DNA from: Escherichia coli
Lineage (GTDB): Bacteria; Pseudomonadota; Gammaproteobacteria; Enterobacterales; Enterobacteriaceae
Assembly: GCF_003334255.1 (NCBI RefSeq)
Contig: NZ_QOWU01000030.1
Length of the DNA: 59,578 nt
Direction: 5' to 3' (one strand)
This document shows, piece after piece, positions 34,974 through 48,776 of the stretch. The first letter of the stretch is position 1, and each line of letters starts with the position of its first letter. Both the position numbers and the translations under genes were made by a program. Under the pieces are notes generated by a model. It did no database searches. It was not told the origin of the DNA and was given only the letters and a program-made list of their open reading frames with translations.

Positions 34974-35681
34974 GTGGTCATCGGCCCTTTTATCAACGCT
35001 AGTGCAGTCTTACTGGGTGGCGTTCTCGGCGCACTGCTCAGCCAACGCTTACCGGAACGTATCCGCGTCTCCATGACATCAATTTTTGGTCTGGCATCGC
35101 TGGGGATTGGTATTTTACTGGTGGTGAAATGTGCCAACCTTCCAGCGATGGTTTTAGCTACGCTACTTGGCGCTCTAATTGGCGAAATTTGTTTGCTGGA
35201 GAAAGGTGTCAATACAGCAGTCGCCAAAGCACAAAATCTGTTTCGTCACTCACGTAAGAAGCCAGCGCATGAATCTTTTATTCAGAATTATGTCGCGATT
35301 ATTGTCCTGTTTTGCGCCAGCGGCACCGGGATCTTCGGGGCGATGAACGAAGGGATGACCGGCGATCCGAGTATTTTAATCGCCAAGTCATTTCTTGATT
35401 TCTTTACGGCGATGATCTTCGCCTGCTCGCTGGGTATTGCGGTATCGGTGATTAGTATCCCATTACTGATCATCCAGTTAACGCTGGCGTGGGCTGCCGC
35501 GCTGATTTTACCGCTGACCACACCGTCGATGATGGCAGACTTCAGCGCCGTAGGCGGTTTATTGCTGCTGGCAACCGGATTACGCATCTGTGGCATTAAA
35601 ATGTTCCCGGTGGTCAACATGCTTCCAGCACTCCTTCTGGCAATGCCGCTTTCCGCCGCCTGGACCGCCTGGTTTGCCTGA
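34974..35681 (+). CDS. yqgA: DUF554 inner-membrane protein YqgA, 235 aa
   Basis: Hydrophobic ORF with GTG start, immediately upstream of pheV. Confidence 0.8.
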
Positions 35682-35786
35682 CAATGCGTGCAATATCGGC
35701 AAAGTGATGATAGATTGTGCAGTCTGCAGTAAATTGAAGAAATTTGATTGACGAGACGAGGCGAATCAGGTTTAATGCGCCCCGTT

Positions 35787-35862
35787 GCCCGGATAGCTCA
35801 GTCGGTAGAGCAGGGGATTGAAAATCCCCGTGTCCTTGGTTCGATTCCGAGTCCGGGCACCA
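35787..35862 (+). tRNA. pheV: tRNA-Phe (GAA anticodon)
   Basis: 76-nt sequence gcccggatagctcagtcggtagagcaggggattgaaaatccccgtgtccttggttcgattccgagtccgggcacca with CCA end. Confidence 0.97.
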
Positions 35863-35968
35863 CCTTACATCAAAGCCACTGGTCAGGAGTGAGAACCCTG
35901 ACGGGTGTCATCGGGAAGGTGTAAGATGTCGTGAATGTCTCTCATGCCATCTCATTTTCTCGATTTAA

Positions 35969-35997
35969 GGAGCATGTTGGACGCATGCTCCTTTTCT
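35969..35997 (+). terminator. Hairpin terminator downstream of pheV
   Basis: ggagcatg…catgctcc stem followed by ttttctc. Confidence 0.5.
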
Positions 35998-36061
35998 CGA
36001 TCATTTATTATGCTTGCAAAGCTTTTTCAGGTTGTCAACAACGGCAAAACAAAGTCATGAT

Positions 36062-37057
36062 CTAAAATACATCAGTAAGTTCTGCCAGTTCTTTTTCAAG
36101 CACTCTTGCCGTCCCCTTCAAATCGATTTCCACATACTCCAGAGTGGTGGAAACATTCCTGTGCCCGAGCATGGTTTTCACCATATAAAGATTACGTTCC
36201 GGTGCACTCATCAGCGTACTGGCCAGCGTATGCCGAAAGCGATGAGGTGATACAGGGAAACCGCACTCTTTCGTCAGACGTCTGAAAAATCCTTTTACCG
36301 GTTGCAGTTCCGGAAGTCCGGTAACGAACGGTGCTTCTGACATCAATGCCACATAACGATGATAATGGAAAAGATAATCCTCAGGTCTTGCCCCCCGTTT
36401 CATCGCCTCATCAATCAAGTGCCTCATTCCCGGGACAAGATGACTGACCATAGGGATACGCCACTCATGGTGTGTCTTACTTCCCTCCGAACACAGATCA
36501 ATCCATCTTTCATCCGGATTAACATCCCGCAGACGCAGGTGAAGTAACTGATTTAGCCTCATCCCGGTAAAACGCAGCGTATTTACCACAATCATCCAGT
36601 ACCATGCCGGACGAATCGCACAACTACGCCAGTGCACACCACCAGAACGCTTCTCCTCTTCATGAAACTGTTCAAGAATCAGCAGAATTCGTTTTACCTG
36701 TTTCTTCGTCAGTGTTTTCTTACGTTTCTTTTCCTGTCTGACATTCATACCATCAAACGGATTCTCACTTAAATTAAGAAGTGTTGAGGAACATGCAAAA
36801 TTGAAAATGGCACGCATATGGCGAACCTTGTTATTCCATGTGTGCGTGGAGCGATTCTGTTTTTTCAGAACCTCTCGTTTCCATTCCCTCACATGCTGTT
36901 GCCGGATATCCTCCGGTAAAAGGGTCTCGCCAACAAACTTCCGGAATCCATTCAGAACCTTTAGGTAACTCCACTCCGTAGCCACTCTCACTGAACGGCA
37001 GAAAAAATATTCATCCATAAGCTCGTTCCAGCGCATGTCAGCATGACTTAATTTCAT
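36062..37057 (-). CDS. Tyrosine site-specific recombinase / island integrase, up to 331 aa
   Basis: Catalytic-domain motifs HRFRHTLAS and LGHRNVSTTLEYVEID (R…HxxR…Y); about 200 bp from tRNA-Phe 3' end; exact start among M1/M8/M14 unresolved. Confidence 0.85.
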   Translation of the reverse strand: MKLSHADMRWNELMDEYFFCRSVRVATEWSYLKVLNGFRKFVGETLLPEDIRQQHVREWKREVLKKQNRSTHTWNNKVRHMRAIFNFACSSTLLNLSENPFDGMNVRQEKKRKKTLTKKQVKRILLILEQFHEEEKRSGGVHWRSCAIRPAWYWMIVVNTLRFTGMRLNQLLHLRLRDVNPDERWIDLCSEGSKTHHEWRIPMVSHLVPGMRHLIDEAMKRGARPEDYLFHYHRYVALMSEAPFVTGLPELQPVKGFFRRLTKECGFPVSPHRFRHTLASTLMSAPERNLYMVKTMLGHRNVSTTLEYVEIDLKGTARVLEKELAELTDVF

Positions 37058-37099
37058 AATTAAACCCTTTACAAATAGGTTACATTTTTACCAAAATAC

Positions 37100-38698
37100 T
37101 TACCTCCTGCGCTCACTGAAAAAAAAGTTCGGACTGTCATTGAGAGCCCCTGTATCCATCAGACCACGTCCTTTTATCAGATAACCTTTGAGTATTTTAT
37201 AATCGTGTGTTTTCCCTGGTGCCTCAGCAATTCGCGCATGATAAAAACGCTGATTATCTTTTCGCTTATGGATATTCAGTCGTTCAAATGCAGCCTGTAG
37301 CACCTCTCTCTTCTCCCCGGGGAGTTGCCGGGCTTTCAGGTAATCATAAAAAACCCCCGGCACAGGAATGAAGACAAAGCCGGCAACCACATGAATTTTA
37401 TCGCCTTTATTGTTAAACGACAGTGAACCATTCTTCAATCCGTCTTTCAGCCATTCAAGAAACCGCTCTCCTGTTAAATCAGGATTAACAGCATCAGATT
37501 CTGCTTCACAGTATTCCTGTTGCTCAGCGTCTTGATACGACTGACAGATTTCCCCATGGCCCGCTGCTGATATATCTCCTGTTGATGAAACAGGAGCAAC
37601 CACCTCGCCAGATGGCAAGTCATCCTCCCCCTTTTCCGGCGCCCTCGCCTCCTCCGCAAACATGCTTACCAGCATAGCTGTATCTTCATCTGTCGATATA
37701 CTCTCCGTTTCACATGCGGCATCGTCCTCTGAACCTTCACTGCTGTCTGGTGTCGTCGGTTTCTCAGCCTGTTGTTGCTGCATCTCTGATTGTTCCTGAA
37801 CAGACTCTGCAGCATTGCCGAACACGGTATTCCCTTCAGCCGCAGCCCCTTCCCCGGACACAGCCGATGCCACGGTGCTCTCCGTTTTACCGGATGCAAC
37901 CACCTCCCCCGTAACGACCTCTGCTGAAGCAATATGACTGGCTGTGGCAACAATTCCACCGTTTAACAACGGACTTTCAGCCTGACGGGCAGCCTCCTGC
38001 AGAACATCACGGATGAGTGCCATTTCCGGATGCTGATGCCAGAACGCACCGGCCAGATTCTGAAGCGCTCCCGGCACCGTCGCAAGCCAGGCTGCAGCCC
38101 CCTCAGGTAACAGACCACCGGCAATCACTGCCGCCAGTTGCTGAGCTTCCGTACCCTGTGGCGGGATCAGTCTGAACCGGAAACGATACGCCTCATCAGG
38201 AACGGATATACCCGGCTGCCATCCCCGGCAGCTGAACAATTCGCCTTCCAGATGCGCAAGCAGAGGCAGGTGATAAAACAGGGCTGACCAGAAAATCACT
38301 GCATGCCAGGCCGCCCCCTGTGCGGCCTGCTCTTCCGCAGAGGCGCCCGGCAGAAACATATGTGCACGGGCCAGACGGACCGCGTAACTGGTATGCAACA
38401 ACGTCAGGTCCCCGAATCCCCCTGCATGTGACCAGCGCCCCTCCCGGGCCGCCGGGACATTCTGCGTGGAGAGAAGCAGACTGTATATGGGCGCACAACA
38501 CATCGCCTCACACAATGACTTTGACATCATATTGTTATCCCGTATCTGCTTCAGACACTGCGTCCTGTTCTTCGGCATCAGCAGTGAATCTGTCGTCAGC
38601 GGAGCATAAAACCCTTCCGGCGTCCCCGGCAGTGACCGCCCGTCATCGGGTATCTCCACAGCAGAACCAGAGGTAAAAAACTTCCGTAACTTAAACAT
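37100..38698 (-). CDS. Uncharacterised acidic Ala/Glu/Ser-rich protein, 533 aa
   Basis: Start MFKLRKFFTSGS with GGAGGG SD, 4 nt after helicase stop; track ORF runs on into the helicase gene; no canonical Walker A. Confidence 0.6.
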   Translation of the reverse strand: MFKLRKFFTSGSAVEIPDDGRSLPGTPEGFYAPLTTDSLLMPKNRTQCLKQIRDNNMMSKSLCEAMCCAPIYSLLLSTQNVPAAREGRWSHAGGFGDLTLLHTSYAVRLARAHMFLPGASAEEQAAQGAAWHAVIFWSALFYHLPLLAHLEGELFSCRGWQPGISVPDEAYRFRFRLIPPQGTEAQQLAAVIAGGLLPEGAAAWLATVPGALQNLAGAFWHQHPEMALIRDVLQEAARQAESPLLNGGIVATASHIASAEVVTGEVVASGKTESTVASAVSGEGAAAEGNTVFGNAAESVQEQSEMQQQQAEKPTTPDSSEGSEDDAACETESISTDEDTAMLVSMFAEEARAPEKGEDDLPSGEVVAPVSSTGDISAAGHGEICQSYQDAEQQEYCEAESDAVNPDLTGERFLEWLKDGLKNGSLSFNNKGDKIHVVAGFVFIPVPGVFYDYLKARQLPGEKREVLQAAFERLNIHKRKDNQRFYHARIAEAPGKTHDYKILKGYLIKGRGLMDTGALNDSPNFFFSERRR

Positions 38699-40199
38699 CC
38701 TTTCCCTCCACCACCTTCTCTGTGCCACTCTCATGCGGGGACGGCGTCTTCTCCGTCGTCCTGCTCTTTTCCTCAGCCAGTTGCTGCATGAGCTCATTGA
38801 GTACCAGCGTCCTGCGTGCCCGGGTAACCGCCACATACAACAGGTTAGTTTCATCCCGGCGCGCCTGTTCTGACATCAGCGGATCAGCGATATCCTGAAA
38901 ATCATCCCCCAGTACAACCCGCACCCATTCCAGTCCCTTACTGCGGTGCGCCGTTGAAACCGTGATATCAGCCTCCCGCTCGTTCGTGACTGTGTGCTCC
39001 CTGAGTAGCTCCAGTTTTTTTGGTAACGGAAAACACAGCTCCAGCAGTCGTATGGACTGATTCATCTCCACATCCTTCGTCACCTTCGCAATATGACGGT
39101 ATTCATCAAAATTCCGGTAATCCCTGCGCAACCGGTCAGAGTGCATCCGGGCCGGCATATCCATCTGGAACCAGTAAAGATCTTCAAGCGCCTCCGTTCG
39201 GTATCCCTCAATGCCCCCGACCCAGTAAACCTTCCTGCCCGCCATTGCTGCCATCAGCGCCGTGCCAATCACTCCGGCGACGGTCCGGTTCAGTACCGCC
39301 CGGTGTCCCCCAAATTTTCCACGCTTCATGCGCTCACGCATTTCCTGCATGGTAAGCACCTCATCATCACCGCCGCAGCCGCTCACCTCTCGACTTTCCC
39401 CTGCGCGTTTCAGCAGCAGATTAGCCATCGCGGCCACTGCGGGGCCAAAACGAAAACTCTGTGTCAGCCAAAGACGGTCGGCACCGGACAGAGACGGATG
39501 AGACAGGGCATCATCCGCGCCACGAAAACGGTAGATCTGCTGATACCGGTCACCGACCAGCACAATCCTGCACCGCTGTCCCAGCACAAGTGCGGAAGTC
39601 ACCGGATTCGCATCCTGCGCTTCATCAAACAGAATGGTGTCCCATCTGCGCGAGAGATCAGGTCCGGAGAGCTGAAACAATTTGAGATAGGTGTCATGGG
39701 TGACCGGAAACGTTCCATCCGGATCGCTCATTGCCTGCCAGAGCGTCCTCACAGCACGAAGTGCCTCATCCGGAGCAACTCCTTTCATTTCGTCCTTGTC
39801 CGGCAGATGCTGCCTGCCGGGGGTTGCATCCGCTGAGCAGATAAACTGATTCAGCCCTGTCATGGCCACCCGGGCCAGTGCCCAGTATCGGGTATTCAGT
39901 TTTCTTGCCACATCGGTGACGAACAAGCCCGGAACAAGCCGCTTCTGGTAATGCCTTCCGAAGCGGGCAAACGCCAGCTGATGCGACGTTTTGCATTCAA
40001 CGTTAAAAGGAAACCTGCGCTCAGCTTCATCACGAATCGCACGATTATAGGCGAGATAGAGCATCCTGCTCTCCGGGCAGGCCATGGCATAGCTGACCAG
40101 TGTGCTGGTTTTCCCTGTACCGGCAAAAGCATTAACAACAAGCTTCCTCCCCTGCCAGTGAATAATTGCCGTCTGTTCTTCTGTCGGTTTATGGGGCAT
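38691..40199 (-). CDS. Compact UvrD/Rep-like superfamily-1 DNA helicase, 502 aa
   Basis: Walker A AFAGTGKTS, motif II ILFDEAQD, motif III VGDRYQQIY, motif V TAHRSKGLEW, motif VI YVAVTRARR; GGAGG SD. Confidence 0.8.
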   Translation of the reverse strand: MPHKPTEEQTAIIHWQGRKLVVNAFAGTGKTSTLVSYAMACPESRMLYLAYNRAIRDEAERRFPFNVECKTSHQLAFARFGRHYQKRLVPGLFVTDVARKLNTRYWALARVAMTGLNQFICSADATPGRQHLPDKDEMKGVAPDEALRAVRTLWQAMSDPDGTFPVTHDTYLKLFQLSGPDLSRRWDTILFDEAQDANPVTSALVLGQRCRIVLVGDRYQQIYRFRGADDALSHPSLSGADRLWLTQSFRFGPAVAAMANLLLKRAGESREVSGCGGDDEVLTMQEMRERMKRGKFGGHRAVLNRTVAGVIGTALMAAMAGRKVYWVGGIEGYRTEALEDLYWFQMDMPARMHSDRLRRDYRNFDEYRHIAKVTKDVEMNQSIRLLELCFPLPKKLELLREHTVTNEREADITVSTAHRSKGLEWVRVVLGDDFQDIADPLMSEQARRDETNLLYVAVTRARRTLVLNELMQQLAEEKSRTTEKTPSPHESGTEKVVEGKDV

Positions 40200-40663
40200 G
40201 GCTTTCCTCCGTAAAGACGAAATTTCCGGTCACTCTGCCTTCAGCCAGGCGACCGTGACCAGCATTAATTTACCCTGGTGACCATAAAATTTTACCTCCC
40301 GTAAATTTTTAGCGACCTGAAAAGAATTAATTATCGCCACCCGGGTATCAGCTGTTCATTATCCCCTCAGACACAGCCCACAACGGGTCTGCTGTATCAC
40401 CGTTCTTCGTAACGGTCATGCTCTTTAACAATCCGGGAGCGGCCACGCCCTGAAGCCGGGCTGAGGAGGAAAACAGATATGCTACGTAGAGAGTGACGTG
40501 CCGCGCCTGCAGCCACAGGTAACACTCCCCAACATCGGACACCGCAAATAATGGCTACACAACCCGAAAACGCACTGAGCGCCAGAACAGTGCGTTTCCG
40601 GTTGTGCCGGAGCCTGCACCCTGCAGAGTCCTGAACAACATCCAGTAAAACCAGGCACTTTCG

Positions 40664-40699
40664 GCGACATCATTTTCCCCATGGTGATGTCGCTTTTTT
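40664..40699 (+). terminator. Strong intrinsic terminator in non-coding region
   Basis: 9-bp stem gcgacatca/tgatgtcgc, 12-nt loop, then tttttt; no ORF of 60 aa or more upstream on this strand. Confidence 0.65.
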
Positions 40700-40736
40700 C
40701 AGCACAGAATAATAATGCACAGCAGGAGTACAGATA

Positions 40737-40967
40737 ATGGCATCAGCACTGGCCACCCCAGCCCCGTATAAATACTGTATTCAGGCCACCATCGAAAAAC
40801 CCGGCGGTACACCGGTTTCATGGATTCGCTTCCAGAATACGCCCATGACGAAACAGGAGTGTGAAAAACTCTTCTCCACTGAAAAAGAAGCCGGTAAATC
40901 TTTCACCGTTAAAGTCGGGGTTACTCAATTTTCATGTAAGGAAAATCCACCTGCACCTGGAGAGTGA
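40737..40967 (+). CDS. Hypothetical small protein, 76 aa
   Basis: AGGAG SD 8 nt upstream of ATG; no recognisable family. Confidence 0.4.
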   Translation: MASALATPAPYKYCIQATIEKPGGTPVSWIRFQNTPMTKQECEKLFSTEKEAGKSFTVKVGVTQFSCKENPPAPGE

Positions 40968-40975
40968 TTTTTATT

Positions 40976-41170
40976 ATGCCTCATCCCATCACATATACAA
41001 ATTTTCTTCCGGTGGTTCTGTTTTTCGTTATCGTTATTTTTATTATCACTTTTATAATAGCCATCACCACGACCATCCCCGCAGATATGACTGTAAGAGG
41101 CTTTTACAATAGATACAGAAAGGATTTTCTGTCTCTTTTTTCGGCATATTTCCTTTCATCAATATTCTGA
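40976..41170 (+). CDS. Hypothetical small hydrophobic protein, about 64 aa
   Basis: Very hydrophobic N-terminal half; ATG at 40976 downstream of GGAGAG. Confidence 0.3.
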   Translation: MPHPITYTNFLPVVLFFVIVIFIITFIIAITTTIPADMTVRGFYNRYRKDFLSLFSAYFLSSIF

Positions 41171-41466
41171 GCATTCTTGGTGACAGGCACCAGTATTTCA
41201 GACAGCACGCCGGTTTTCGGTAGTACACCGGACAATGCGATTACAAACTCGCTGATTTCACTGGCGTTCTGTAATTCGTTATTAACTCACGCATGGATTT
41301 GTGATCTCTGCGACATACACAGAAACAAAAACATCTTTATTTATATAACACTGGCTTTTCTTCATCTTATTTTAATCAATTCATGCACCCATTTTATCTA
41401 CGCCACTTTTTATTAATTCAGTTAACTCCGTCTTAACAGACAGAAATAGTGAAAAAGGTGATACTG

Positions 41467-42138
41467 ATGAATATATTAAGATACTTAAGTATTTCGCTCT
41501 TCGCGTTCTCATTTTCATATACCGCCACAGCCTCCACTCAGATATCATCATCGCACAACCACGCCGAAAAACGTGCAATCGGTACGCTGAAATTTATACG
41601 GGCCGACGGACAACGACCGTTTGGTCAGGCTATGAAACAATTATTACCCACCGGCTGGCGTACTGAGATTGCCCGTGACGTCCGGCTCCCCGCCAGAATA
41701 TCATGGTCCGGAAATGACCAGTGGAACCATGTTATCGAAAAAACGCTGCCCCGCTACAGCCTGAAAGCCACATTTGATACCTCAGGGAAACGCGTACTGA
41801 TCCAGCAGGCGGAAAAAACGGTAAAATCTGGCCTGTTTTCTGCCCCCGTAACCGGTGTCAAAAAAACAGAAACACGTCATATTGAGCAGGGAATGACCCT
41901 GCGTACAGGGCTGGAAAAATGGGCAGCCGCCGAACCTTGCGCTACCGGGAAATGGAAAGTGGCATGGAAAACGCCGGTAAATTACAGTATCGATGCCCGG
42001 TTAGTTTTTTCAGGTAATTTTATGGATGCACTGAACAGTACATTCGCACTTTATCAGCAGGCTGAAAAACCCTTATATGCCTCGGTGAATAAAAACCAGT
42101 GCGTGCTGATAATTACTGACATCCCGGGGGACAGCTAA
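41467..42138 (+). CDS. Pilus-assembly accessory protein (PilL/TcpQ-like, tentative)
   Basis: Signal peptide; first gene of a block co-linear with the R64 thin-pilus operon; ATG 41467 with AGGTG SD (track starts at GTG 41449). Confidence 0.45.
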   Translation: MNILRYLSISLFAFSFSYTATASTQISSSHNHAEKRAIGTLKFIRADGQRPFGQAMKQLLPTGWRTEIARDVRLPARISWSGNDQWNHVIEKTLPRYSLKATFDTSGKRVLIQQAEKTVKSGLFSAPVTGVKKTETRHIEQGMTLRTGLEKWAAAEPCATGKWKVAWKTPVNYSIDARLVFSGNFMDALNSTFALYQQAEKPLYASVNKNQCVLIITDIPGDS

Positions 42139-47675: not shown

Positions 47676-48776
47676 ATGAGATTTCTGGAAAAACTCAACA
47701 ACACCGACATTGAGCTGACAGCACTGACCGTCTGGATAGCCAGAAAAATCTTTGCCCTGAACCGGGTGGAGTTCTACGAATCCCTGGGCGGCATGATACG
47801 TGACGGGACCCCGTCACTGCGTGCACTCGAATTTCTCTGCAATGTCGAAACTGACTTCGGAACCCGGAAAGGGACATCAGGCATGTATTTTCTGGCGAAG
47901 GAATGCATCGCGTCCATTAAATCCAGCGGCATGTTATCCGGTGCTCTGCCCACCTGGGTGCCGCCGGAAGAAGCCACGCTCATTCGGAACGGGGAAGAGC
48001 GCGGGAATATTGCCGACGCGCTTTTCCAGGTGGCCAGAACCGTTAAGGCACGGCGGGAAATGACATCCAGCCTCATTGCCGTCTGCCTCTACCCCCTTCT
48101 GCTGCTTTCGCTCTGTGTGGTGAATATGTACAACGCCCATACCCGTATTGTCCCCATCGTCAGTGCGTTTGCTGCAGAAGATAAATGGTCATTCCAGATG
48201 AAAGTGCTGGCTGGCATGTCGGAGTTTTTCATCGGGTACGGATTCTGGCTCTGCGGGGCCAGTTTCACCCTGACTGTTCTGATCCGTTTTTCATTCAGCC
48301 GGTATACCGGCCCCGGCAGGAGGATGCTGGACAGGATTCCCCCCTGGTCACTGTATCAGACCTTACACGGGGTGAATTATCTGTTCAGTATTTCATCCAT
48401 GTTGCAGATCAATATTCCTCTTTCGCAGGCGCTGCTCCGAATGGAAAAAGGGGCAGAAAATAATAAATGGTTAAAGGAGAGAATTCAGGCAATAAGAAAA
48501 CATGTATTATCCGGTCAGAATCTGGCCACGGCAATGCGAAATTCCGGTTACGATTTCCCGTCCAGAATATGTATCAATAAACTGCTCCTGAATTCCGAAA
48601 GGGAGGACAGTGTGGCAGCCATGGCGCTCTATGCCGATCAGTGGCTGGAGGAAGCAAAAAAACGGGTAAAACGAATTGGATTAATTATTACCGGTATATC
48701 AGGAGGTTTTGTCTTCTTTTTTATTCTTAACATGATATCTGCCATCTACAGTATCAGCGACATGCTGAAGCAATAA
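47676..48776 (+). CDS. pilR: Type IV pilus inner-membrane platform protein (GspF/PilC family), 366 aa
   Basis: Polytopic membrane protein directly after the ATPase, 1-nt gap. Confidence 0.75.
   Translation: MRFLEKLNNTDIELTALTVWIARKIFALNRVEFYESLGGMIRDGTPSLRALEFLCNVETDFGTRKGTSGMYFLAKECIASIKSSGMLSGALPTWVPPEEATLIRNGEERGNIADALFQVARTVKARREMTSSLIAVCLYPLLLLSLCVVNMYNAHTRIVPIVSAFAAEDKWSFQMKVLAGMSEFFIGYGFWLCGASFTLTVLIRFSFSRYTGPGRRMLDRIPPWSLYQTLHGVNYLFSISSMLQINIPLSQALLRMEKGAENNKWLKERIQAIRKHVLSGQNLATAMRNSGYDFPSRICINKLLLNSEREDSVAAMALYADQWLEEAKKRVKRIGLIITGISGGFVFFFILNMISAIYSISDMLKQ

Follow-up and report, generated by a model that had tools for sequence, protein, structure and literature searches.

The best-described relative of the small gene considered here is ydaC/rcbA of the Rac prophage of Escherichia coli K-12, the only member of the DUF1187 family that has been studied. 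The gene lies in the order recET-ralR-rcbA, next to xis/int, and the 179-nt RNA RalA is encoded wholly inside it on the opposite strand; the tagged YdaC protein went undetected, and the "double-strand break reduction" phenotype of rcbA was assigned to this antisense sRNA (PMC4041452). As the phenotype is attributed to RalA, there is no function of the RcbA protein that could be transferred to its relatives. Our literature search for DUF1187 returned no paper that names the family.

A second point of comparison is the region just upstream of pilL in an IncI plasmid, which contains pilI (84 aa), a 150-aa ORF and a 196-aa ORF. The latter two, which carry no such names in the annotated record, we take to be the pilJ and pilK genes of R64 (Yoshida et al. 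1999). The third is the ICEEc2-type integrative conjugative element (e.g. in strain VTB97420v), in which a DUF1187 gene (UniProt D9CGU6-like) sits between a UvrD-like helicase gene and pilL and is separated from pilL by a gap of only 52 nt.

The window, by which we mean the whole stretch of 59,578 nucleotides of E. coli DNA that was analysed, holds one end of an integrative conjugative element of the PAPI-1/pKLC102/ICEEc2 family at tRNA-Phe (35787-35859). From this end the minus strand carries int and the genes for a TraI-like relaxase and a UvrD-like helicase, after which the plus strand carries a structured leader, two small ORFs (ORF1 and ORF2) and pilL to pilV. The features that define the family are all found, namely integration at a tRNA gene next to the gene for a tyrosine recombinase, a relaxase of the TraI_2 (MOBH) type, type IVb pil genes with a shufflon and ICE conjugation genes of the TIGR037xx type. 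PF07514 matches the relaxase of a close relative, and in strain STEC2018-553 (100% identity to the window) the same element encodes, further along, the ICE proteins TIGR03749-03757. The site-specific integrase gene downstream of pilV is presumably of the rci type, judging by its position. Two small genes had been predicted immediately upstream of the pilus operon, and the locus does contain two small same-strand ORFs, placed between the helicase/relaxase/integrase block and pilL. The features at the front of the pilus operon are the following.

40724-40728, plus strand: Shine-Dalgarno sequence AGGAG of ORF1, 8 nt 5' of its ATG, read from the sequence
40737-40967, plus strand: ORF1, a 76-aa protein of the DUF1187 (PF06688) / RcbA-YdaC family, the promoter-proximal cistron ahead of pilL
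41467-42138, plus strand: pilL (TcpQ-family lipoprotein, PF10671), with which the recognised genes of the type IVb pilus operon begin; the RefSeq start is the ATG at 41467 and that of the mechanical ORF the GTG at 41449

ORF1 runs from an ATG at 40737 to a TGA at 40965-40967, and its product is soluble by composition (GRAVY -0.48, hydrophobic window absent), so that the original prediction of a soluble 76-aa protein with a strong Shine-Dalgarno sequence holds in each particular; the AGGAG is also kept in the ICEEc2-type relative. The same prediction saw no recognisable similarity for either protein, which is true of ORF2 but not of ORF1. Pfam DUF1187 matches ORF1 with an E-value of 4e-26 (91.6 bits, model positions 1-60 of 61) and NCBIfam NF007283 (PRK09750) scores 120.1 bits against a cut-off of 92, near full-length matches that exceed the curated thresholds; phrog_5753 matches as well (E 1e-20), and RefSeq already labels the product WP_000135398.1 'DUF1187 family protein'. 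Its size fits the range of the family (about 60-80 aa). These profile matches make ORF1 a member of a known, already annotated and uncharacterised mobile-element family. By BLASTP, K-12 RcbA (translated b1347) is 53% identical to ORF1 over a 55-residue core (E 2e-20), which identifies ORF1 as an ortholog-level relative of Rac RcbA/YdaC. The two share the motif YxIxATIxKxGGxP..W....(T/S)xxxCE...S..KE.G......V....FxC, and ORF1 contains all of the conserved residues of the family (Y13, I15, K21, G23, P26, W29, C42, G53 and F65); in the alignment of 41 representatives from which this conservation was taken, K21 and W29 are invariant and the remaining seven are conserved in at least 90% of the members. 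Each is small and soluble and comes from a mobile element. ORF1 is longer by 12 residues at its N terminus and has a Pro-rich tail, and its gene precedes the type IVb pilus genes of an ICE, unlike rcbA, which follows recET-ralR.

The pattern of substitution bears on whether this protein is made. Against the ICEEc2-type ortholog, at a distance where synonymous sites are saturated, dN/dS is 0.07; among close relatives it is 0.05-0.28 in frame compared to 0.3-4 out of frame, and the amino-acid changes fall only in the N- and C-terminal tails, apart from one V27I. Across 57 clusters of DUF1187 the Trp and Lys are invariant, and Cys, Gly and Pro are conserved in at least 90% of members. Since both the dN/dS of 0.07 and the residues conserved across the 57 clusters point to selection on the protein itself, ORF1 is, as judged from its sequence, a real gene whose translation yields a 76-aa cytoplasmic protein.

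ORF2 presents a different picture, for which the relevant features are these.

40976-41170, plus strand: ORF2 as it stands in the window, 64 codons from an ATG; what truncation has left, at the 5' end, of a 146-codon orphan ORF; a single strong TM segment
41168-41170, plus strand: nonsense codon TGA, derived; TGG (Trp65) in relatives
41171-41416, plus strand: in-frame remainder of the 146-codon ORF, with its stop TAA at 41414-41416; AT-rich, 31-43% GC

The second protein had been described as about 64 aa long, hydrophobic and overlapping the first. It is hydrophobic, with a strong TM segment at about residues 10-33, and it does end at 41170, but the 64-aa form begins after a gap of 8 nt and does not overlap ORF1; only a 68-aa form that starts at the GTG at 40964 does so, by 4 nt (GTGA). 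Neither start has a well-spaced Shine-Dalgarno sequence, as the GGAG precedes the GTG by 1 nt and the ATG by 13 nt. When the codon at 41168-41170 reads TGG, as it does in 7 of 9 related sequences (L004, L005, L007-L010 and L012), the frame stays open from 40976 to 41416 for 146 codons, and the intact product in these seven is 146-151 aa, with an in-frame 15-nt insertion in L012; SCU-171 and S19-651 are examples of strains with the intact allele. TGA is found at this position only in the lineage of the window and in NCTC9112 (L006). The exact 64-aa product occurs on 13 contigs, compared to 879 and 108 for the two commonest 146-aa forms, and in the window the remainder is cut off from the ORF2 start, so that the program-made ORF list gives it as a separate 79-aa TTG ORF (41177-41416). 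This comparison of alleles indicates that ORF2 in the window is no gene of 64 aa in its own right but the N-terminal part of a longer frame, and here it would be a pseudogene or at most the source of a 1-TM peptide. Decay of the pil operon as a whole was considered as the cause of the stop and rejected, as pilN to pilV are intact in the window; a frameshift in pilR is specific to strain 2015C-3121.

Whether the intact 146-codon frame is a gene at all is a closer question. We lean slightly toward a young, weakly constrained and dispensable gene, for which the sequence predicts a membrane protein of roughly four helices. It is also quite possible, if somewhat less so, that the frame was never a gene and that the 490 nt separating ORF1 from pilL form a non-coding, AT-rich spacer, acquired by the ICE lineage and holding promoter or silencing sequences of pilL, in which case the ORFs of 64 and 146 codons would be accidents of a T-rich composition. 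The spacer has a GC content of 31-43% compared to about 50% in its flanks, no well-placed Shine-Dalgarno sequence precedes the ORF, and its codon-position composition is atypical, with G1 at only 0.18. In dinucleotide-preserving shuffles of the 490-nt spacer an ORF of at least 64 codons arises in 45% of cases (P 0.45), as expected by chance, but one of 146 codons is rare (P 0.004). The frame is open in three lineages that are 17-21 substitutions and a 15-nt in-frame indel apart, and 15 of 34 substitutions are synonymous where 10.4 are expected (P 0.064), both of which speak for a gene, as do hydrophobic segments that are helix-like and regularly spaced. On the other side, a dN/dS of 0.25-0.53 is barely better than in the other frames and thus not clearly frame-specific, current RefSeq annotation leaves the ORF out, and it has been lost to the nonsense codon here and to an IS1 insertion in another strain, apparently without consequence. 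The segment is absent from the sister ICEEc2-type element, which manages without it. A search with the 146-aa query found homologues only in three E. coli clusters of at least 72% identity; tblastn against plasmids gave no match, no Pfam, NCBIfam or PADLOC match was found for the long form, and its AF2 model is unusable (pLDDT 48).

Conservation in related elements had been proposed as a check on both small genes. For ORF1 it is evident, as the gene lies upstream of pilL in 55 of 55 E. coli genomes with this element type and evolves with the low dN/dS given above. For ORF2 it is not, given its absence from the ICEEc2-type element, the lack of homologues beyond one E. coli lineage and the truncated allele in the window.

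The original prediction also placed the two ORFs where R64 carries pilI, pilJ and pilK and suggested that they might be pilus accessory or regulatory proteins. The likeness of position stands, in that both sets of genes lie upstream of pilL on the same strand; the proteins at the PilJ and PilK positions have N-terminal hydrophobic segments, like long ORF2, and the PilJ-position protein is 150 aa compared to 146 aa for long ORF2. Similarity in sequence is lacking: ORF1 and PilI could not be aligned, and long ORF2 matches the PilJ-position and PilK-position proteins only at E 0.2-0.4, in hydrophobic stretches. ORF1 belongs to a family unrelated to PilI, PilJ and PilK and is not their equivalent. 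A pilus accessory role is likewise not indicated by the distribution of the family, as DUF1187 is found mostly in elements without pili, including the replication/nin regions of lambdoid prophages that have neither a pilus nor a T4SS. A scan of the genome collection with ORF1 alone as query confirmed no relative, and a scan with a PilL alignment returned two plasmid-like loci only.

What the gene might do ahead of a pilus operon has to be judged from its neighbours. In each of the 55 E. coli genomes with an element of this tRNA-Phe type (18 + 37), DUF1187 immediately precedes pilL, synteny that is invariant in both ICE subtypes. The closest plasmid relatives of ORF1 are the DUF1187 proteins of IncI2 plasmids (59% identity), whose gene stands first in the T4SS (transfer) operon and overlaps the stop of a CaiF/GrlA-type regulator gene; there it precedes SPFH/NfeD and VirB-type genes instead of pilL. 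ORF1 would be the first cistron of a transcript that runs on into the type IVb pilus genes. We infer this co-transcription from the shared orientation, the 52-nt gap in the sister element and the lack of a strong terminator between ORF1 and pilL, and it is opposed by a weak hairpin with a U-run inside ORF2 (41111-41145, -10.4 kcal/mol) and by a strong terminator-like hairpin just upstream of ORF1. Because the same family occurs both in pilus-less lambdoid prophages and at the start of the T4SS operon of IncI2, ORF1 is probably a general 'early' accessory protein of mobile elements, most likely a small factor that would bind or modulate DNA or a protein of the host or element upon activation of the element. 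Taken together, a general DUF1187 accessory gene (ORF1) followed by a truncated orphan (ORF2) is the probable and best explanation of the locus as a whole.

A narrower role is that of a regulator or assembly cofactor devoted to the type IVb pilus/transfer operon. The protein, made first from the operon mRNA, would then act on Pil proteins or pil expression, as small upstream genes do in IncI plasmids. This role fits the invariant position, the short gap to pilL, the head position in the IncI2 operon, the strong purifying selection on ORF1 and a conserved leader that travels with the gene in ICEs and IncI2 plasmids. However, many members of the family (including those of phrog_5753) are in prophages without pilus or T4SS, a 7-nt duplication shifts the reading frame of the gene in 8 of 37 ICEEc2-type genomes, ORF1 is not similar to PilI/J/K, and Pfam and other domain searches detected no DNA-binding or known regulatory domain in it; PADLOC had no match for ORF1 or for ORF2. 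We regard this narrower role as unlikely. ORF1 is also unlikely to form part of the pilus or of its assembly machinery, and a regulatory role of ORF1 in transfer operons is possible.

The region upstream of ORF1 is in our view a more interesting feature than either small ORF and an undescribed candidate regulatory element. It comprises the following.

40420-40527, plus strand: conserved non-coding leader core, blocks A and B around a mini-ORF
40420-40469, plus strand: block A, which ends in the Shine-Dalgarno sequence GAGGAGG (40463-40469)
40479-40496, plus strand: mini-ORF, MLRRE*
40481-40527, plus strand: block B, found by BLAST and alignment in plasmids of the IncI2 family
40558-40606, plus strand: long hairpin with a stem of about 20 bp (-31.3 kcal/mol, z -4.65, 0/200 shuffles)
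40663-40700, plus strand: intrinsic-terminator-like hairpin followed by T6 (-18.5 kcal/mol, z -4.98, 0/200 shuffles)

The leader core is about 90% identical to that of the ICEEc2-type element over 117 nt, at a distance where the synonymous sites of the flanking genes are saturated. Block B by BLAST, and both blocks by alignment, are also present upstream of the IncI2 DUF1187 operon, so that the IncI2 copies lie downstream of the same block B as ORF1, and in an IncI2-related plasmid of about 35 kb. Each copy has a Shine-Dalgarno sequence and a short ORF with its end at or near GAGTGACG, and the length and sequence of this mini-ORF vary between elements (5-17 codons). The long hairpin shows one compensatory change (C-G to T-A) in the ICEEc2-type sequence. 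The terminator-like hairpin, which ends 24 nt before the Shine-Dalgarno sequence of ORF1, has an identical stem and a different loop in the ICEEc2-type element, and could be an attenuator or mark the 3' end of a leader RNA. Rfam has no match for the leader. It resembles 5' leaders of the leader-peptide/attenuator type in its strong Shine-Dalgarno sequence and very short ORF, followed by stable hairpins, and in the terminator-like hairpin immediately before the first structural gene; it differs from them in lacking an Rfam family and in the variable mini-ORF, and attenuation here is putative. An oriT or operator function is possible as well. A more ambitious reading, which we regard as doubtful, is that DUF1187 and the leader (40420-40700) form a portable control module for conjugative-transfer operons, in which translation of the mini-ORF would set terminator read-through and the DUF1187 protein, as the earliest product, would feed back on pilus/T4SS expression or on DNA processing.

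It is improbable that the truncated 64-aa ORF2 product works on its own in this strain as a small membrane protein, such as an accessory of the pilus or of entry exclusion. It does retain the strongest TM segment, its start 8 nt past the ORF1 stop would allow re-initiation, and conservation along the long ORF is highest in its N-terminal 64 residues, but the stop is derived and rare, it halves the second hydrophobic segment, and chance alone gives an ORF of such length.

Least likely, and in our view hardly tenable, is a Rac-like arrangement in which the product of the ORF1 DNA is an antisense antitoxin sRNA and the DUF1187 ORF is untranslated: K-12 ydaC provides the precedent and a minus-strand terminator-like hairpin with a T-run lies inside ORF1 (40815-40801), but we rejected a RalA-like RNA here, as the Rfam RalA model (RF02694), which scores 225 bits on K-12, finds nothing in window positions 35500-42000 at E<=1, tblastn of RalR over the whole window reveals no RalR/Lar homologue (best E 2.1), the hairpin is no better than those of shuffled sequences (z -1.0), and the selection described above acts on the protein.

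The pair of genes is thus largely ordinary, one an annotated DUF member and the other a broken, lineage-specific orphan. The family to which ORF1 belongs is clearly under selection as a protein, whereas the sole experimental paper on DUF1187/RcbA concluded that ydaC is untranslated (PMC4041452). If the portable module were real, it would provide the first function for DUF1187/RcbA and define, for ICEEc2-type ICEs and IncI2 (mcr-1-carrying) plasmids, a cis-regulatory leader that is new. As DUF1187 is fixed at the front of both the pilus operon of the pheU/pheV ICEs and the IncI2 transfer operon, a role in transfer would be cheaply testable; these E. coli ICEs have recently been shown to drive Hfr-like chromosome transfer (PMC13127887).

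The element that carries the two small genes lies in an E. coli chromosome and has the tRNA-Phe gene (35787-35859) at its left end, with the genes arranged as follows.

Gene order of the integrated element
After tRNA-Phe, minus strand: a tyrosine recombinase, then a TraI-like nickase/helicase
38691-40199, minus strand, after the TraI-like nickase/helicase: a UvrD-like helicase
Between the UvrD-like helicase gene and ORF1: an intergenic region of 537 nt
Plus strand: ORF1 (first small gene), ORF2 (second small gene), pilL (41467), pilM, pilN and on to pilV
Downstream of pilV, plus strand: a site-specific integrase

By its position and our own reading, we take this integrase to be of the rci type. 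Strain STEC2018-553 is 100% identical to the window across the element and carries TIGR03749-03757 'integrating conjugative element' genes, a conjugative ATPase and TraG further along; together with PF07514/TraI_2 on the relaxase of a close relative, this identifies the element as an ICE of the PAPI-1/pKLC102/ICEEc2 family. In E. coli this family was described at pheU/pheV (Roche et al. 2010, as cited in PMC6761156 and PMC13127887). A pilR-type platform gene is intact in the window (47676-48776, 366 aa) and frameshifted in strain 2015C-3121 (L001 19371-20470), so the window matches STEC2018-553 and not 2015C-3121. Two starts are predicted for pilL, GTG 41449 of the mechanical ORF and the RefSeq ATG 41467, which has AAGGTG 7 nt upstream.

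ORF1 was originally predicted to encode a 76-aa soluble protein behind a strong SD, and this is borne out: it runs from ATG 40737 to TGA 40965-40967, AGGAG (40724-40728) lies 8 nt before the ATG, and the product is hydrophilic (GRAVY -0.48). The accompanying view that neither gene has recognisable similarity fails for ORF1, which matches Pfam DUF1187 (PF06688; E 4e-26, 60/61 model positions), NCBIfam NF007283 (120 bits, cut-off 92) and phrog_5753 (E 1e-20). ORF1 is a real, conserved and already annotated member of the DUF1187/RcbA family; RefSeq names the exact protein (WP_000135398.1) 'DUF1187 family protein', and the identical sequence occurs on 948 contigs. The family is small: HMMER, run exhaustively over 1.84 billion representatives, found only 57 clusters, and names and AFDB hits place it only in mobile elements of Enterobacterales and Orbales. 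Alignment of 41 representatives gave the core MYKITATIxKxGGxPVxWTRYS..K.T..QCEK..S..KE.G......V.L..F.C, in which W29 and K21 are invariant and conservation reaches at least 90% at Y13, I15, G23, P26, C42, G53 and F65; ORF1 has all of these residues.

The sole named member, RcbA/YdaC of the Rac prophage (b1347, compared as its translation from K-12), is 53% identical to ORF1 (E 2e-20). Whether ORF1 encodes a protein matters because the sole experimental study concluded that ydaC is untranslated, and explained the phenotype of the locus by RalA, a 179-nt sRNA that is encoded opposite ydaC and neutralises the adjacent RalR toxin (PMC4041452). Compared with its ortholog in the sister element, the ICEEc2-type ICE, ORF1 has dN 0.24, dS of about 3.3 (saturated) and dN/dS 0.07. 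Among close relatives dN/dS is 0.05-0.28 in frame against 0.3-4 out of frame, and with the exception of V27I the amino-acid changes are all in the N-terminal extension or the C-terminal tail, which are poorly conserved. Evidence of this kind favours a protein product of ORF1 over an RNA-only reading. A RalA-like antisense RNA at ORF1 was rejected: the Rfam RalA model, which scores 225 bits on K-12, has no match in the window at E<=1, no RalR/Lar homologue is found there, and a minus-strand terminator-like hairpin within ORF1 is not better than shuffles (z -1.0). The product may be a small binding or modulating factor, the first made when the transfer genes of the element are expressed, and its resemblance to a phage inhibitor is a lead only.

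ORF2 was expected to encode an overlapping hydrophobic protein of roughly 64 aa. The length and the hydrophobicity stand, with 64 aa from ATG 40976 to the end at 41170 and one strong predicted TM segment. That start lies 8 nt past the ORF1 stop; an overlap (GTGA) exists only in a 68-aa form from GTG 40964, which is the less likely start. GGAG (40959-40962) is badly spaced as an SD for either start: 1 nt is too short for the GTG, and 13 nt too long for the ATG. The window was aligned to relatives from seven complete genomes and to a single Logan contig. Codon 41168-41170 is TGA in the window and TGG in L004, L005, L007-L010 and L012, where the frame continues to TAA 41414-41416 and reaches 146 codons from the ATG (151 in L012, through a 15-nt in-frame insertion). 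The stop is derived, since TGA is confined to NCTC9112 and the window's own lineage, and the two more distant lineages both read TGG. A separate 79-aa TTG ORF in the ORF scan (41177-41416) is the severed tail. IS1 splits the 146-codon ORF in another strain (GCA_005040425.1, L011 1-75) at window position ~41183, a second and independent disruption; the contig starts with an IS1 end, recognised by its terminal sequence. Counted by contigs in the protein collection, the 64-aa form (13) is rarer than either of the two commonest full-length 146-aa forms (879 and 108). By these comparisons, ORF2 in the window is a truncated allele, the stump of a lineage-restricted orphan ORF. Within it, a weak, AT-rich hairpin with a trailing U-run (41111-41145; -10.4 kcal/mol, z -2.7) could cause partial transcript termination ahead of pilL, and bears on whether pilL is served by a promoter in 41170-41450.

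As to the intact 146-codon ORF, we lean slightly towards a young, weakly constrained and dispensable gene for a predicted membrane protein. Dinucleotide-preserving shuffles of the 490-nt spacer yield a 146-codon ORF in 0.4% of cases and a 64-codon ORF in 45%, and the sole indel keeps the frame. Synonymous changes make up 15 of 34 substitution events, compared with 10.4 +/- 2.6 expected when the same mutation spectrum is placed randomly (P 0.064), and dN/dS (0.25-0.53) is the lowest of the six frames by a small margin, in a test that is low-powered at this divergence because the pilL start itself gives 0.2-1.1 in the same comparisons. These observations speak against the ORF never having been a gene, a reading to which we nevertheless give a substantial chance, somewhat short of even. 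It is favoured by the GC content of the ORF2 region (31-43%), G at only 0.18 of first codon positions, the lack of a usable SD, and an AF2 model with pLDDT 48 (four helices predicted). Likewise, homologues are absent beyond three E. coli clusters and from 72,556 plasmids, current RefSeq annotation leaves the ORF out, and Pfam, NCBIfam and PADLOC searches of ORF2 gave no match, so that for this gene the claimed lack of similarity holds. The sister element lacks the entire segment; conservation in related elements, on which the original prediction depended, is thus wanting for ORF2. A young, dispensable gene remains our preferred reading of the intact form.

ORF1, by comparison, is conserved in both ICE types. 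Among 5,426 complete E. coli genomes, 55 have the DUF1187-pilL arrangement, 18 of the window type (96.5-100% identical) and 37 of the sister type (~69% identical). The helicase gene and pilL flank the DUF1187 gene in either type, and in the sister type pilL starts 52 nt past it. A 7-nt tandem duplication (GATGACT) frameshifts the gene in 8 of the 37 sister-type genomes (MDR_56, L003 6620-6640, and seven others), so an element can lose the gene and still be kept. A further 544 plasmids, almost all of them conjugative and, to judge from size and typing, apparently IncI2 for the most part, carry a copy with up to 59% identity to ORF1; there a CaiF/GrlA-family regulator gene precedes DUF1187, its stop overlapping it, and SPFH, NfeD and VirB-type T4SS genes lie downstream. 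In lambdoid prophages DUF1187 lies among replication/nin genes, adjoining DNA methyltransferase and NinB or after a lambda-P-like gene, and in Rac the gene (rcbA) follows recET-ralR. A lone E. coli copy (L018 6001-6207 / L019 2216-2422) has as neighbours IS fragments and a chaperone-usher fimbrial operon with an MrpH-like adhesin, another surface-appendage setting that is possibly coincidental. Judged by gene neighbourhood, these settings share not a pilus but a mobile element's early or leading operon.

The two genes had also been likened to pilI/J/K of R64. An IncI plasmid does carry small genes upstream of pilL, as the window does, but its annotated PilI and the two hypothetical ORFs at the PilJ and PilK positions have no similarity to ORF1 or ORF2, and the likeness is not upheld. 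The place of ORF1 ahead of pilL gives no evidence for a new component of the pilus.

The leader upstream of ORF1 contains the following features.

Features of the leader core
40420-40469: block A, ending in GAGGAGG (SD) at 40463-40469
40479-40496: mini-ORF ATG CTA CGT AGA GAG TGA, nine nt past GAGGAGG
40481-40527: block B, GCTACGT..GAGTGACGTGCCGCGCC....ACAGGTAAC

Over 117 nt, the two ICE types share ~90% identity in this non-coding core (40420-40527), while the synonymous sites of the flanking genes are saturated. BLAST located block B, and alignment block A, in plasmids as well: ahead of the regulator-DUF1187 operon in an IncI2 plasmid (L017 700-870), and between repA and the T4SS operon in a ~35-kb IncI2-related one (L029 3915-4065). 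By eye, the alignment shows in every copy an invariant AGGAGG and, after it, a short ORF of 5-17 codons whose end falls at GAGTGACG or shortly ahead of it. Two very stable plus-strand hairpins follow, whose stems are conserved and whose loops vary in the sister element. The first (40558-40606, ~20 bp; -31.3 kcal/mol, z -4.65, 0/200 shuffles) carries a compensatory change in one pair when the ICE types are compared. The second (40663-40694; -18.5 kcal/mol, z -4.98, 0/200 shuffles), with an identical stem and a different loop in the sister element, is followed by T6 to 40700 and ends 24 nt before the ORF1 SD, so that expression of ORF1 and the pil genes would need read-through of this terminator-like structure. 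Because the space between it and ORF1 is too short for a promoter, ORF1 is probably reached by read-through from a leader starting further upstream. Where the helicase-relaxase-integrase block and the leader diverge, the promoter region holds a minus-strand promoter-like site (40358-40330) and an inverted repeat around ATTAATT motifs (40255-40270 / 40325-40340); the repeat is conserved in the ICEEc2-type element and looks like an operator.

The leader matches no Rfam family, and from the four lineages compared it could be a leader-peptide attenuator or regulator, an sRNA, an operator region or oriT. The pair of small genes is ordinary; its experimental interest lies in the fixed place of ORF1 ahead of pilL, and the conserved leader beside ORF1 is the item of most potential.
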